From the sequence record PV654397.1: a stretch of DNA of 64,000 nucleotides; one strand, 5' to 3'. The notes beneath the pieces were generated by a model. It saw only the letters and a program-made list of their open reading frames with translations. It was not told the origin of the DNA and searched no databases. The position numbers were made by a program, and so were the translations under genes. Source of the DNA: Escherichia phage WPEC5. This document shows, one piece after another, positions 51,390 to 63,104 of the stretch; the first letter of the stretch is position 1, and every line of letters begins with the position of its first letter.

Positions 51390-51719
51390 TATTTTAACCT
51401 CATTATAAAAATACTATAGTACTGTAATGCTACAATAATACTACTAGTGCTAATCTTATTCAAACCACATGATACTACATATCCCCCAGCATTACCACGG
51501 ATAGTAACGCCTTCGTATTGTCTATATAAATTCAACTGCGTTTATTGCCTTTGATCAAGAATTGATCAGAATTATACGCCTTATGCTAAATTGATCCAGT
51601 ACTTTTTTTGATCATTTATTGATCGATATTATATAGTTACATTTGTGCACCCTATGGGTTAGTGACGTTCTCGTCTTGATGTAAGTATTATGCCAGTACT
51701 GGAGGATATTGTCAATAGA

Positions 51720-51923
51720 TTATTTTAATTTTTTTCTGTCATTGATTAATGCTTTCAGTACTATACTAATAACTTGCAATGATTCATCAATGACAATGAA
51801 ATTATTCTCTTTCATTAGATGATAGTTACCATTGATTGTATATTCTAACGAGTACTGTTTACGTTTAATTTTTGATAATGTTTCTATTTGTTTTTGTACT
51901 GATTTCATGCTAATCATTGTCAA
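51720..51923 (-). CDS. Hypothetical small protein
   Basis: Minus ORF. Confidence 0.45.
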   Translation of the reverse strand: MTMISMKSVQKQIETLSKIKRKQYSLEYTINGNYHLMKENNFIVIDESLQVISIVLKALINDRKKLK

Positions 51924-52022
51924 ACGTCCTGTAACGCATTCTAACGAGATAAACGGTTTAGTACTGGCATTGTATAGGGTAAATGATTAAAGCCCACCAG
52001 CGTTAACCAGTGGGCTATAATA

Positions 52023-52166
52023 TTACATCTTGCGGATAATCTTAACAGTATCTTTCACCGATTTACCGTTTTGCTGACATTGCTCGATCATCGCGTATTG
52101 TTCTGCGGTCAGATCCTCGCCAGTTTTTGCCAGTACTGCGTCGATGAATGAATCCAGTGCGATCAT
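52023..52166 (-). CDS. Small ORF (about 47 aa)
   Basis: Fills a cassette between promoter-hairpin units; below the track cutoff. Confidence 0.3.
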   Translation of the reverse strand: MIALDSFIDAVLAKTGEDLTAEQYAMIEQCQQNGKSVKDTVKIIRKM

Positions 52167-52256
52167 TTTGTTTCTCTCTTAGGTTAAGTTAACTACTGTT
52201 TATAAAACTTATTATACAGTACTATCAAACGTTGTCAATAGTACTGGTAATATATT

Positions 52257-52434
52257 TTAGCGGTAGTCGTCGTATGCTTTATTCACCTGGCGAATATAAC
52301 TTTCAAAGGCTTCGTCTACCGTTTCATACTCCCGAACATAATCACCATATGAAACTACATACATACCTTTTTGATCTTCAAACGTCATGATGATAGAATC
52401 CAGACCAACGATTTCAGTTTTTGCGATGATAGCC
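52257..52434 (-). CDS. Small ORF (about 58 aa)
   Basis: Fills a cassette; below the track cutoff. Confidence 0.35.
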
Positions 52435-52518
52435 ATTTTTAATTCCTTAATAGTGTAGTTGATAAAAGTTATTATGTCAGTACTATCAAACTATGTCAAT
52501 AGTACTGTGATAATATTT

Positions 52519-52731
52519 TTAGTTAATGATAGTCAGTGTAAAATTGTAATCACCTGCCTGGTATAGTACTTTGTCGCCGAACGTTCCAACACGTTTCATA
52601 TTGCAATAGATACCCATAACACTTTTTACATCTTTGATATTCCGAACGCCAGTAATATCCTTGTTTAAATGATCGTGATCAGAAAATAAAACTTGTTTTG
52701 CATTTTTCAGTACAGTGCAGATATTAGCCAT
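52519..52731 (-). CDS. Hypothetical small protein
   Basis: Minus ORF preceded by a hairpin. Confidence 0.5.
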   Translation of the reverse strand: MANICTVLKNAKQVLFSDHDHLNKDITGVRNIKDVKSVMGIYCNMKRVGTFGDKVLYQAGDYNFTLTIIN

Positions 52732-52826
52732 TTTGTTTTCTCTCTGTTAGTGGGGAGAATCATTTTCTCCCCTTGATGTAACTTATTATACAGTACTATA
52801 ATCTATTGTCAAACTATTTTTTTATA

Positions 52827-53168
52827 TTATTCGAAATCTTCTGGACCGGACTGATAATCATCTTCACCGTATGCACTTTCTAACCGCTCGCCAGTGTGAT
52901 CATCAGTTAGTGAGTCATCCTCATAGTTCACGTCTACGCCAGTGATGTAAAACTGGCTATCGTCTGGATCATTGAAATTAATTTTTTGGATGTTTACAAT
53001 AACTGTATTGATACCCAGGACACCGCCATCAGCCGTTACAAAGTACTGATAGTTTTCGCAACCGCCTGAATTGAAACCGTAATTAATTTCGGCCCGACCA
53101 TCATTTAAACGCAGTGCCTGAGCGATGATTTCATTTTCAAAGTTAGATTGAGCAATTGAGATAGTCAT
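52827..53168 (-). CDS. Hypothetical protein (113 aa)
   Basis: Minus ORF. Confidence 0.5.
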   Translation of the reverse strand: MTISIAQSNFENEIIAQALRLNDGRAEINYGFNSGGCENYQYFVTADGGVLGINTVIVNIQKINFNDPDDSQFYITGVDVNYEDDSLTDDHTGERLESAYGEDDYQSGPEDFE

Positions 53169-53282
53169 GATTCGTTTCCTTATTACCAGGGGAAACCGTT
53201 TCCCCTTTCGATGTAAAACATTATACGCTTATTGAGATAGTTTGCAAGTACTTTTTAAAAATAGTTTTCAGTACTCAAACAT

Positions 53283-53380
53283 TATATAATAGATACACTT
53301 ATGCACCCTGTGGGCTAGTGAGCTATCTCTCAATGAATATATAATAGCAAAATGGCTGACCGGAGTCAACCACTTTTTTC
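53283..53380. repeat. Copy d of the ~100-bp intergenic element
   Basis: GCACCCTGTGGGCT...TATATAATAGCAAAATGGCTGACCGGAGTCAACCAC then T-run. Confidence 0.55.
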
Positions 53381-53522
53381 ATTTATTTTTAGCTTTTAGA
53401 ATCGCCGCCTTTCGCGTCATGCCTTGCTTGATGTATTCCTGTACTTTCGCTTTACGTGCATTCGCTTTATTTGCTTTCGTAAACGCCGAACAACTTTTAT
53501 AGTTTAAACCTGTTGGATTCAT
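53379..53522 (-). CDS. Small Lys/Ala-rich ORF (47 aa)
   Basis: Below the track cutoff; fills the gap. Confidence 0.3.
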   Translation of the reverse strand: MNPTGLNYKSCSAFTKANKANARKAKVQEYIKQGMTRKAAILKAKNK

Positions 53523-53608
53523 TTAAATCACCATAAAGAATAGATAGGTTACTAACAACGCCGCGATCAATGCACCGACCAGGGCCGAACTATAGTAAGC
53601 TAATGTTT

Positions 53609-60934: not shown

Positions 60935-60964
60935 TACCGGCAATTGTAAAGATTTGTAAACTGC

Positions 60965-61195
60965 TTATACTGCAATCGCGTCCAGGCTGTAATAATAATA
61001 AGTGCCGTATTGGTGTACTTTATTACCTTTTATTTCAGTACTGAATGAATCCGAACGATTTGCATATGATGTTAATTTAAAGTACTTTGATTTGCTGATA
61101 CGTTGCCATACACCACAGATCCGCTGTAAGTAAGTAGTTTTATTCGTGGTAGTATCTTTTACGGTTTTAACTTCAGTCATATACATATTAGTCAT
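60965..61195 (-). CDS. Hypothetical small protein
   Basis: Minus ORF. Confidence 0.5.
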   Translation of the reverse strand: MTNMYMTEVKTVKDTTTNKTTYLQRICGVWQRISKSKYFKLTSYANRSDSFSTEIKGNKVHQYGTYYYYSLDAIAV

Positions 61196-61282
61196 TTTTA
61201 TTACTCCAGGTTATAGGCGGGAAGTGTTCCCGCTCTCGATGTAAAACATTATACGCCATTAAACATAGTTTGCAAGTACTTT

Positions 61283-61549
61283 TTATTCAAGTACTGCAAT
61301 CTTTTTTGTACGGTACACGGTCACGCGGTTGCCCTTTCGGTCGAGCTTTATTTCTACCACTCGACGCGATACACTATCGGGACTTTTTAAGGCCGCTAAC
61401 CAGTACTGTAATGATCTGGCGGTACTACGCTTTACAATGGCCCAACGTTTACCACGTTCCGATTGTACGCCCATATCTTTAAACGTTGCCCCGTCCTGGC
61501 GTGCGGCGATCCGAGCTTGTTCACGCGTCGCAAAATACTTAATATTCAT
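61283..61549 (-). CDS. Hypothetical protein (paralog of 47597..48001)
   Basis: Shared motifs; start moved to internal Met. Confidence 0.55.
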   Translation of the reverse strand: MNIKYFATREQARIAARQDGATFKDMGVQSERGKRWAIVKRSTARSLQYWLAALKSPDSVSRRVVEIKLDRKGNRVTVYRTKKIAVLE

Positions 61550-61637
61550 GCTGTTGCCCTTATCGTTGGTGTATGAATAAAACACTATTATAAAGTACTA
61601 TCCCCGTGCAATAGTACTTTAAATAAATTCTATTCTA

Positions 61638-61877
61638 TTACATTCCAACCATCGCCGCACGGATCGCAGTAGTGCTATATTTGAATCCGTCCGGTGTTTT
61701 ATCTTGTCCAGTCTGTTCTAAAAATAACATCATATGACGGGCCGCATCATTGCGATTAGTGTTGTCGTTAATAAAATCCAGGGCCAACCGATACAATCCC
61801 TCATCGTTATTAATCCACAGGCTTACATTCCAATGAGTTTTGTTTTTGTGACCTAAGAACATTTTTGATTTAGCCAT
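61638..61877 (-). CDS. Hypothetical small protein (paralog of 59596..59835)
   Basis: Shared motifs; start moved to internal Met. Confidence 0.55.
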   Translation of the reverse strand: MAKSKMFLGHKNKTHWNVSLWINNDEGLYRLALDFINDNTNRNDAARHMMLFLEQTGQDKTPDGFKYSTTAIRAAMVGM

Positions 61878-61970
61878 TTTTTTAATCCTCTTATATAGTG
61901 GGGAACTATTCCCCACCTGATGTAAAACATTATACGCTTTTAAACATAGTTTGCAAGTACTTTATTAAAC

Positions 61971-62333
61971 TTATTTGTAAATTTTGCCACTGTCAGCCCA
62001 TACCAGGAAACGAGGCATATTATCCCATGCATCTTGTTTTAAGTTTAAGCCGTGCAATTCCTCAGTTGTTGCCATCCCTGGTACTGGCTTACTACACACC
62101 GCGAAATTTTCGCCCATATACTGATAAACCATCGTCAAATCATTTGAGATCATTATATGGATCATTGAATCCAGCATCAAAGTAGCGGCGTATTGTTCAC
62201 GCTTAAGCGGCAACATTGCAATAAGTTCCCGATAAGCTGCAATGTGAATTTTTACCGTTTCAGCCGGAAGACCTTTCATCTCATCGCGGAAGTTTACCAG
62301 GTTAAGCATGATTTTATTGATTTGAGTCGCCAT
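61971..62333 (-). CDS. Hypothetical protein
   Basis: Start moved to internal Met (MATQINK); the track extension translates the hairpin. Confidence 0.5.
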   Translation of the reverse strand: MATQINKIMLNLVNFRDEMKGLPAETVKIHIAAYRELIAMLPLKREQYAATLMLDSMIHIMISNDLTMVYQYMGENFAVCSKPVPGMATTEELHGLNLKQDAWDNMPRFLVWADSGKIYK

Positions 62334-62643
62334 CGTTTTAATCTCTCTTAATGTGTAGCGGGAAGTGTTCCCGCTCTCGATGTAAAACATTATACGCTTT
62401 TATCAGTACGGTGCAAGTACTTTCTACAAATACTTTTAAAATAGTTTTCTTTCTATATAGGAGTACTATTATTCAGTACTGAATCAATCCACCAAATCAT
62501 CCCTATACCCCGTAAAACGGCCTCAGACGCATTCTAACGCATTAATACACCTAAGCTATACATTTGCACCACTCCCAACAATCCAGGGCGTTACGGGCCG
62601 TTTAAACGCGTTAAATTATTTTCAATTATTTTGTTTTTAGGTA

Positions 62644-62671
62644 TTGACTTGATCCTGAAAAAGCGTATAAT
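62644..62671 (+). promoter_or_regulatory. Plus-strand promoter (TTGACT, 16-nt spacer, TATAAT)
   Basis: Followed downstream by CCCCAGAGGGTGC; no ORF downstream. Confidence 0.4.
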
Positions 62672-62859
62672 TACTACATAGACGCGAGAAAGCGGAAACC
62701 CCAGAGGGTGCGGAATTACGCCCAAAATTCAAGATATAAAAAAAGGATACACTCCCGCACCCTAGCAGGTAAACGCACTTTCTCAGTACTGAAATATAGT
62801 ACCATAGTCCGGCCCAGGATAGCAAGCAAATTAATTAAAACTTTTTTGCTTCCAGGGTA

Positions 62860-62887
62860 TTGCTTTATTTTTTCAGTACTGTATAAT
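62860..62887 (+). promoter_or_regulatory. Plus-strand promoter (TTGCTT, 16-nt spacer, TATAAT)
   Basis: Followed downstream by AGCCCACCGGGTGC; the TTGCTT -35 resembles a T4-type MotA box. Confidence 0.35.
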
Positions 62888-63104
62888 AGTTCCATCAAGT
62901 CGAGAAAGACTCAAGCCCACCGGGTGCATAGTTACGCCCAAAATTCAGTACTGAAAAAATTTTTAAAAATATCCGTCCAGGTCGTTGACATTGCCCCCAG
63001 TTTATAAGATAATGATTCCAGATTCAGAAAAATCTAACTCCAGATACTGCGGGGAAACTATCCCCACGCGGTAGGGGAACTATTGGAAAAACAAAATAAA
63101 ATTT

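Follow-up and report, generated by a model that had tools for sequence, protein, structure and literature searches.

A promoter-coupled and very probably structured RNA module is repeated in the terminal repeat of Escherichia phage WPEC5 and related jumbo phages

Background

Promoter-early stem-loops (PeSLs) are cassettes of T4-type phages in which a near-consensus sigma70 early promoter, A/T-rich upstream, is overlapped by a stem-loop able to terminate transcription (PMC2839356, PMC4122927). Here we describe cassettes resembling them in Escherichia phage WPEC5, found in a stretch of 64,000 nucleotides that was analysed over its full length (sequence record PV654397.1; hereafter the window). 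It contains 11 units, each consisting of an early promoter and a transcribed module with a conserved box, CCCACMGGGTGC, and all 11 are located in the long direct terminal repeat (DTR) of the phage. The modules are very probably structured RNAs, and we lean towards the interpretation that the units are small-RNA genes. As in PeSLs, the cassettes are repeated and intergenic, have small, ORFan-like early genes of a T4-related phage as neighbours, and in four of them the -35 is part of a 12-bp hairpin, a predicted terminator. PeSLs, however, end at the ribosome binding site (RBS) and start codon of a gene, whereas the units bear a conserved, apparently structured non-coding segment and no conserved open reading frame (ORF). 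They furthermore occur in both orientations, form convergent pairs and are found in the terminal repeat only, and their box is part of no described PeSL. The units appear to represent PeSL-like early cassettes that bear a structured RNA of a new family.

In phage lambda, nut consists of boxA and a boxB hairpin bound by the N protein. The module is likewise a promoter-proximal early RNA element that combines a variable-stem hairpin, a purine-rich GNRA-like loop and an adjoining conserved block. Unlike in nut, the hairpin precedes the box, there are 11 copies instead of two, many of them antisense or convergent, and no sequence similarity is evident. The put RNA of phage HK022 is about 70 nt long and folds into two long stems in a V shape, with a triplex in stem I (PMC9378689). 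Both put, which is able to act without an encoded protein, and the module are nascent RNAs with two stem-loops just past an early promoter. There is one put per operon, whereas the module, 47–50 nt long with stems of 3–7 bp, is multicopy and independent of orientation, and has a mutually exclusive alternative hairpin.

The distantly related phage PA5oct has two non-coding RNAs in its terminal repeat, ncRNA001 and ncRNA002, which according to RNA-seq are highly transcribed from early infection and account for 2–5% of the phage reads (PMC7318152). These are, as the units, ORF-less loci in the long DTR of a related jumbo phage, but they are 236 and 451 nt long, exist in single copy and have no match to the module. 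Homology was rejected, the best covariance-model hit having an E-value of 0.31 and being located off those loci. In the literature searched, neither the box in any form in a phage context nor a transcriptome of an enterobacterial RaK2-like phage was found, and the promoters described in genome papers on the RaK2 group are generic RpoD-like ones only. Jumbo phages of the RaK2/121Q group are now gathered for therapy, yet to our knowledge no explanation exists for more than 80% of the genes or for any of the non-coding content in their genomes.

Promoter coupling and confinement to the terminal repeat

With at most one mismatch allowed, the box CCCACMGGGTGC matches the window 10 times against 0.05 expected, a number reached by none of 100 shuffles. 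The copies are found at 58409, 60812, 62700 and 62916 on the plus strand and at 43753, 46008, 49291, 51647, 53303 and 60869 on the minus strand (units are named by these positions, with p or m for the strand). A covariance model of the module recovers the same ten together with one degenerate minus-strand copy (62743–62796) facing 62700p, which brings the total to 11, and no unit was found with it in the 1–42 kb part of the window.

Each box is preceded by a promoter of the form TTGAC(A/T)-N16-17-(T/C)AT(A/T)AT, and the end of the -10 is separated from the box by 21–28 nt (20–30 nt in 82 distinct copies from related phages). A first-pass annotation of this DNA had placed the box about 25 nt after a subclass of promoters on both strands. 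This is borne out by the counts and distances above, in the window as well as in the relatives. The promoter coordinates given there (58352, 60762, 62644 and 62860, and close to 51.7 and 60.9 kb) are all correct. The copies it reported from 51650–62920 are real too, whereas that span was too narrow, the family reaching 8 kb further to the left.

All 11 units have a sigma70-like early promoter with A/T-rich sequence upstream and are located in intergenic spaces, and four of the five strongest plus-strand promoter matches in the DTR (at least 11/12) belong to them. Two types of promoter can be distinguished. In type A (43753m, 46008m, 49291m and 53303m) the -35 TTGACT is part of a 12-bp terminator-like hairpin, AAAGGGAUUGAC-uccg-GUCAGUCCCUUU, which runs into the -10 TATTAT. 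Type B (51647m, 58409p, 60812p and 60869m) has the form TTGACA-N17-TGgCATAAT with CAGTACTG in the spacer, and has no terminator-like stem-loop that overlaps or adjoins the promoter.

The region 58300–63300 matches about 200 phage records. The best are Asteriusvirus jumbo coliphages, with Ecwhy_1 (98%), G17, Sharanji, PBECO4 and 121Q as the closest. The phage is itself a jumbo coliphage of Asteriusvirus type, and the window comprises one end of it. Annotations of the homologous stretch exist in phage vB_Ec-M-J (a DTR of 21,525 bp) and in Klebsiella phage Muenster (a terminal repeat of 20,030 bp). The inner boundary of the DTR maps to about 42,340 of the window, and in its final 80 nt the window agrees at every position with the annotated physical end of vB_Ec-M-J. 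The DTR therefore covers 42,340–64,000 (21.7 kb), and the genome ends at position 64,000. The minus strand carries nearly all genes, which are directed away from this end. The DTR holds about 45 strong promoters, and promoter-like sites are in excess there (110 against 68 expected). Outside it they are at background (104 against 99.8 expected, 26,001–44,500 scanned), as are the terminator-like sites beyond it (8 against 6.8 expected). In the complete genome of a close relative, OR844650 (351,992 bp), the covariance model gave 10 hits, all within 302.4–321.2 kb and none elsewhere; this stretch is colinear with the DTR of the window. At the other side of the window, the minus strand of positions 1–33,000 carries a long and tight array of ORFs, 140–210 codons each and all on the same strand.

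Structure of the RNA module

Rather than standing alone as a 12-mer, the box forms the core hairpin, SL2, of an RNA module of about 47–50 nt, where it follows a first hairpin. We consider it highly probable that the element is indeed a structured RNA. Its transcript is predicted to start at the A of a CAU, 7 nt after the -10. A first hairpin, SL1, begins 2–6 nt past this start. Its stem of 3–5 bp occurs in more than 20 different sequences (for example GAC/GUC, UGGC/GCCG, ACCAC/GUGGU and UCCA/UGGA) around a conserved, purine-rich loop of 6–8 nt (GAGAAA, GCGAAA, AGAUAA or AGAACAA). About a quarter of the units form a short class that keeps the A-rich stretch with just 1–3 SL1 pairs. A linker of 3–5 nt, ending in a purine, leads to the box, which is built as R-CCC-(AYM, or a 4-nt loop)-GGG-U-GC and is followed by five mostly purine nucleotides and then by (U)GYRYCY-AU.

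In a model-based alignment of 83 hits, 94.6% of the SL1 cells are paired, compared with 46.3% in shuffles and 13–50% in controls slid along the sequence. All four pairs show changes on both sides, and 107 cells are compensatory against 38 in shuffled data, where none of 500 shuffles reached 107. The hairpin score of the real leaders is 8.79, against 6.64 ± 0.19 for shuffled leaders, and 13 SL1 cells are U-G or G-U.

RNAalifold independently predicts SL1 as well as SL2, the latter as R:U, C:G, C:G and C:G around a loop of 3–4 nt. SL2 is 99% paired with a nearly invariant stem, CCC..GGG being replaced by CCU..AGG in two independent copies. Its closing pair alternates between G-U and A-U, the U being invariant and G-U being present in 38 of 74 distinct copies. 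Preserved G-U pairs correspond to A-C mismatches on the other strand, which argues that the constraint acts on the RNA of the promoter strand and not on duplex DNA. Furthermore, differences in SL1 length shift the box by up to 8 nt relative to the promoter, which fits an RNA element better than a DNA site phased with the promoter. The first-pass annotation had offered both possibilities, a site in a short leader RNA and a site at the DNA level. SL1 covariation and the G-U/A-U alternatives speak for the former and against the latter. For processing at the box, which it had also named, the analysis gave no indication.

A further hairpin, SL3, is formed between GGGUG(C) and (G)YRYCY across a 6-nt loop. 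It uses the same GGG as SL2, so that the two are mutually exclusive, and they are nearly isoenergetic (means of -3.9 kcal/mol for SL2 and -4.3 kcal/mol for SL3). The five pairs of SL3 are 93–100% compatible, and 88.6% of its cells are paired against 29–59% in slid controls. Variation in the partner strand consists of just U/C opposite G and A/G opposite U; since these changes are one-sided and transitions, the support for SL3 is moderate.

Other candidate features of the module were rejected. Pairing of the 3' segment with the 5' leader or the SL1 loop (AGAUA/UAUCU, AGACG/CGUCU), which on inspection resembled covariation, gave 10.30 against 10.25 ± 0.20 in a permutation over 82 units. The AUG of a mini-ORF, AUG UAU CUA UAG, is by eye absent from many copies, such as those with 3' arms ending ...UCCGUCU. 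Resemblances to a DnaA box, a CsrA site, an ops site, a T7 class II pause and tmRNA were also considered; some of them break down at the variable positions, and none is claimed.

Conservation among related phages

A BLASTN search with a 106-bp probe over unit 58409p matched 46 phage records, including nine Klebsiella phages (among them RaK2, K64-1 and Muenster) at 75–79% identity and one Erwinia phage. In the Klebsiella phages, promoter and module alone make up the alignable part at 58409p. Most records have no annotation in the homologous region, while a few give just a hypothetical protein or the terminal repeat. An exact-pattern scan of IMG/VR returned 30 loci; contigs of 345–378 kb hold several promoter-linked copies each, and most of the short metagenomic contigs look like chance matches. 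Requiring a promoter left 82 distinct units from jumbo phages of E. coli, Klebsiella, Cronobacter and Pectobacterium/Erwinia. An origin from the host or a prophage was rejected, as 185,579 bacterial and archaeal genomes gave one match, which had no promoter or SL1 architecture.

Rfam gave no match in the whole window at gathering scores, and none over the transcribed module of any unit in 58300–63100 at E-values up to 10. The nearest Rfam match, IS102 RNA at 60897–61138 on the minus strand, scores 21.4 bits where the cut-off is 46 (E = 1.9) and overlaps just the promoter of 60869m. A search for tRNA and tmRNA found none.

Genomic context of the units

Units are present in both orientations. 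Those in gene direction are intergenic and are followed by a separate promoter for the gene, 42 nt after 53303m and roughly 40–170 nt after the others (the -35 of the promoter following 51647m is unclear). Four units out of 11 are directed away from every gene. No ORF had been seen after the plus-strand copies in the first-pass annotation, which still holds. The sole candidate, ORF 62708–63007, has a GTG start within a box and spans a second promoter. Its reading frame is disrupted in a relative with 97% identity and also in Klebsiella phage Muenster, so that it is not conserved and was rejected as a gene.

A total of 24 out of 85 units form convergent, tail-to-tail pairs with 104–130 nt between the 5' ends, approximately twice the length of the module. 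The window has two such pairs, spanning 60797–60900 and 62679–62796 from 5' end to 5' end. The facing copies at 60762–60934 that were pointed out earlier are real, and the arrangement recurs in other phages. For the overlapping antisense transcripts that had been expected from them, the geometry is correct and recurrent; the transcripts may overlap or may stop at about 50 nt.

Unit 58409p (58352–58434) has the promoter TTGACA-17-TGgCATAAT at 58352–58380, a predicted start near 58387, an SL1 of GAC-gaaaca-GUC, its box at 58409–58420 and the 3' arm CCGUCU, and is aimed at the genome end. After about 75 nt its transcript would meet a two-way terminator hairpin, CGGGGAG-N7-CUCCCCG (58461–58495), common to the unit and to the convergent minus-strand gene 58487–58738; the predicted unit RNA is about 100–108 nt. 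In G17 a minus-strand terminator is annotated at the equivalent place, and the orthologue in Klebsiella phages has the same antisense orientation with a terminator at the same place.

The other plus-strand units are located closer to the genome end. Unit 60812p (60762–60837), of the short class and with an unclear SL1 stem, is the plus member of a convergent pair; its minus member, 60869m (60855–60934), has the SL1 UGGC-agauaa-GCCG, and their 5' ends are 104 nt apart. Unit 62700p (62644–62725) carries the box variant CCCAGAGGGUGC and a 3' arm ACGCCC that pairs with GGGUG and is followed by AAAAUUC. The degenerate unit facing it on the minus strand (62743–62829; covariance model E = 0.011) has a weak promoter, TTGCTT-17-TATGGT, at 62801–62829, and its SL3, AGGGUGCG-GGAG-UGUAUCCU (62743–62763), is followed by U7 and is terminator-like. 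Unit 62916p (62860–62941), with the promoter TTGCTT-16-TATAAT and the SL1 AGUC-gagaaa-GACU, is the closest to the genome end, at 1.06 kb.

Among the remaining minus-strand units, 53303m (53289–53376) is of type A with its -35 TTGACT in the hairpin 53349–53376, the -10 TATTAT and the SL1 UGAG-agauag-CUCA, and 51647m (51633–51715) is of type B with the promoter TTGACA-17-TGgCATAAT and the SL1 GACG-agaa-CGUC. The three innermost are all of type A: 49291m (49277–49359; hairpin 49332–49359; short class), which is followed by a Chi site at 49264–49271; 46008m (45994–46081; hairpin 46054–46081) with the SL1 UGAG-agauaa-CUCA; and 43753m (43739–43821; hairpin 43794–43821; short class), located 1.4 kb from the inner DTR boundary at about 42,340. 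The fused terminator/promoter hairpins of these four type A units (53349–53376, 49332–49359, 46054–46081 and 43794–43821) are of the PeSL type and are kept in the copies of RaK2, GAP32 and CBB. Downstream of 51647m, at 51553–51624 on the minus strand, five GATC occur within 72 nt, in repeated TGATCAA motifs located before the next gene begins.

Possible functions of the module

Promoter-coupled, structured at the RNA level, confined to the repeat, free of ORFs and conserved across genera, the units are read by us, with somewhat more confidence than doubt, as autonomous ORF-less immediate-early small-RNA genes carried on PeSL-like promoter/terminator cassettes. A strong host-sigma70 promoter, fused to a terminator hairpin in four copies, would drive a short RNA from the A of the CAU. 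This RNA would fold into SL1 and then SL2 (R-CCC-loop-GGG-U), with SL3 (GGGUGC paired to the GYRYCY that follows 6 nt later) as a possible substitute for SL2. The RNA itself would be the product. Its length would be about 50 nt if the polymerase is halted by a partner unit, by a U-tract or by a collision, and about 100 nt if a two-way terminator follows; with no stop at all, it would make up the 5' portion of a longer transcript. We infer that this RNA becomes a separate molecule that acts in trans. Possible antisense targets of the box outside the units amount to 6–8 weak sites on each strand of the phage genome, where 4.2 are expected, and they show no pattern. The invariance of the SL1 loop and the CCC/GGGUGC core, together with the lack of complementary sites in the phage genome, argues for recognition by a protein, and the RNA would most likely be bound through these parts and not act by antisense pairing. 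With a DTR of 11 units at both ends, a packaged genome would hold about 22 copies, firing on entry of either end.

With regard to what is expected of small-RNA genes, all copies have a promoter, no ORF and the structure; a terminator follows 58409p, as it does the orthologue in Klebsiella phages, and is not seen after most gene-direction copies. The latter is one of several points that weigh against small-RNA genes. In most gene-direction copies no terminator is recognisable before the next promoter, and the tail after SL3, which begins with AUA or AUU, has in most copies 3–6 U in its first 10 nt. A discrete RNA would therefore need processing or a collision there. In a minority, SL3 is followed by U5–U8 (62743–62763 in the window, and loci L007:1228, L004:8111 and L023:8951 in relatives). 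The support for SL2 and SL3 consists mostly of one-sided changes that are also transitions, and is weaker than that for SL1. Within the genus, module and flanks alike are approximately 96% identical, and the module is not more conserved; at such identity throughout, a comparison of the module with its flanks is uninformative. Moreover, the starts, ends and expression of the units are predicted from the sequence, and neither a partner protein nor a target for the RNA was found.

The alternative that survives best, although we find it unlikely, is a cis-acting leader in the manner of lambda nut or HK022 put, where the nascent RNA of SL1 and box, alone or with a phage protein, makes its own polymerase resistant to the numerous terminators of the early region. 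The module does stand directly after a subset of strong early promoters, and putL, too, has two stem-loops just downstream of a promoter (PMC9378689). Gene-direction copies recur every 2–3 kb in a terminator-rich region, and no terminator lies between module and next gene. SL1 resembles boxB in its short covarying stem and conserved purine-rich GNRA-like loop (GAGAAA, GCGAAA, AGAACAA). The downstream genes, however, have promoters of their own, and terminators are not in excess beyond the repeat (8 against 6.8 expected). Set against the conserved pentaloop of boxB, SL1 has a loop of 6–8 nt on a stem of 3–5 bp, and the short class has no stem. The boxA sequence (C/U)GCUCUU(U/A)A is absent from the module plus 60 nt in all 85 units, and no ORF of the 64-kb window plausibly encodes the arginine-rich N-terminal motif, the sole hit to an N-like arginine-rich stretch of 18 residues being a 35-codon ORF outside the repeat. 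The hairpins have 3–7 bp compared with the long stems of the approximately 70-nt put RNA (PMC9378689). Furthermore, four of the 11 copies aim away from genes, one of them entering the two-way terminator in an arrangement kept in Klebsiella phages, and the roughly one quarter of copies that form convergent pairs would antiterminate into each other.

Less probable still, in our view, is a bistable attenuator, in which a factor binding SL1 and SL2 would decide between a stop at about 55 nt, by SL3 and an A/U-rich tail, and read-through into the next gene. The shared GGG and near equal energies of SL2 and SL3, both kept across genera, are what would be expected from such a switch, and in several copies (62743–62763, L007:1228, L004:8111) SL3 with the U5–U8 after it scores as a terminator. 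In most copies, including all strong ones of the window, the tail is not a U-tract, though. Attenuation would also control little, since the downstream genes have their own promoters, and antisense copies have nothing to attenuate.

We regard it as improbable that the units are mobile PeSL-kind promoter/terminator cassettes and nothing more, with an inert RNA whose sequence is conserved through copying between cassettes. The -35 of type A is inside a terminator-like hairpin as in one PeSL subclass (PMC2839356), and the units are located among small ORFan-like genes in a plastic region where some alignment breakpoints adjoin them, at 51.7 and 53.3 kb. Gene conversion, however, leaves the compensatory changes in SL1, with its more than 20 stem sequences, unexplained, as well as an invariant CCC/GGGUGC core in phages of five host genera despite unalignable flanks. 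PeSLs moreover end in a Shine-Dalgarno sequence and start codon, which the units do not.

There is likewise very little to recommend the view that the act of transcription itself matters, either by R-loops that prime replication or recombination of the repeat, as at T4 oriF and oriG, or by head-on or convergent promoters, which would keep outside transcription out of the repeat or protect the DNA ends. Outward and convergent promoters do cluster in the last 5.6 kb before the genome end, the RNA is G-rich and then runs into an A/T-rich tail, and RaK2-like phages have a T4-type replication apparatus (PMC5259590). Neither a covarying 5' hairpin with a conserved loop nor a conserved CCC/GGG hairpin would be needed for this, though, and most copies are in gene direction and spread across the whole repeat.

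Hardly credible, finally, is a site in duplex DNA, at which a phage or host regulator would recognise CCCACNGGGTGC (about +20 to +32) and so repress or activate the promoter. The box is within reach of a promoter-bound polymerase, and CACCgGGTG is a 4+1+4 palindrome in the CCCACCGGGTGC variant. The forms CCCACAGGGUGC and CCCAUAGGGUGC, however, are commoner and not palindromic, the spacing from the promoter differs by 8–10 bp among copies, the G-U pairs kept in SL1, SL3 and the SL2 closing pair are A-C mismatches on the other strand, and the neighbouring SL1 covaries as a hairpin.

Other features of the terminal repeat

The palindrome CAGTACTG occurs 59 times in the window against 0.78 expected, for example at 58366, 58444, 60737, 60913, 62784, 62874 and 62946. 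It is located in the spacer of type B promoters (CCAGTACTGGCATAAT) and also a few tens of nucleotides past most units, and in a relative its density is 14–22 per 10 kb in the repeat against about 5 elsewhere. Possibly, a regulator of early promoters uses it as an operator. The Chi sequence GCTGGTGG is present at 12 sites against 0.33 expected (43699–63423), 11 of them in the terminal repeat and nine on the minus strand. The minus-strand orientation would be readable by RecBCD entering from the other genome end, where the boundary at about 42,340 is terminal, and the site at 63416 (+) faces the end at 64,000. In a 352-kb relative, 12 of 27 Chi sites are in the three 10-kb bins that hold the repeat.

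Midway between the members of convergent unit pairs, Klebsiella and other relatives have a near-perfect palindrome with a Fur-box core, AATGATAATCATT (at about 22625–22643 in Muenster, locus L002, and about 8085–8105 in L004; also in L007, L024 and L030). There is no such site in the window. The palindrome could be a shared hairpin terminator or a protein roadblock.

Ordinary early promoters on the minus strand, TTGCAA-16-TATAAT, are followed by a conserved leader, ACAUCGA..., and then by a G+C-rich hairpin, G(C/U)GGGGAA-N4-UUCCCC(G/A)C, right before the RBS (for example at 62355–62385, 61895–61925, 59850–59880 and 58262–58280). The fifth of the strongest plus-strand promoter matches, TTGACA-17-GATAAT at 62985–63013, has no box. 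In the stretch down to about 63100, its predicted transcript begins with an SL1-like hairpin, AGAUU-cagaaa-AAUCU, and continues with GGGGAaacuaUCCCC; this promoter and leader may be a diverged relative of the units.

The last 1.6 kb have no ORF of at least 80 codons except the non-conserved 62708–63007. In the final 1.3 kb the sequence TAC(G/A)CCCAAAAT(T/C)C occurs four times against 0.10 expected (62717, 62933, 63240 and 63266, plus strand), twice within 62700p and 62916p, where it makes up their 3' arm and tail, and twice standing alone. Adjoining it are five copies of a TAGCC(G/A)T...CCAGA repeat at 63110–63218. Packaging or end-recognition signals may be located in these 1.6 kb. In Muenster (L002) a box, CCCACTGGGTGC, is found at 25036–25047, 17 nt from the genome end predicted by PhageTerm and with no evident promoter; the Asteriusvirus end has no counterpart.

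Implications

The module is the most conserved nucleotide feature of the terminal repeat across five host genera, and with about 22 copies behind the strongest host-type promoters its RNA should rank among the first and most abundant products of infection. We know of few phage-encoded small RNAs with a known function. More tentatively than the small-RNA genes themselves, we suggest a new immediate-early RNA effector, a possibility that we hold with considerable doubt. This would be either an abundant two-hairpin RNA, made from about 22 gene copies in the first minutes, that captures a conserved enterobacterial protein, or a compact, factor-independent SL2/SL3 switch riding on the host polymerase and altering its behaviour. 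Candidates for the captured protein would be RNA chaperones, nucleases, defence sensors and even RNA polymerase. If true, the effector would be a nucleic-acid counterpart of the protein host-takeover factors otherwise encoded in such repeats. The module furthermore provides a defined 50-nt object for work on structure, protein partners and the effect on termination, and it would extend the PeSL idea, in that a promoter/terminator cassette known for shuffling ORFans can bear an RNA gene instead.

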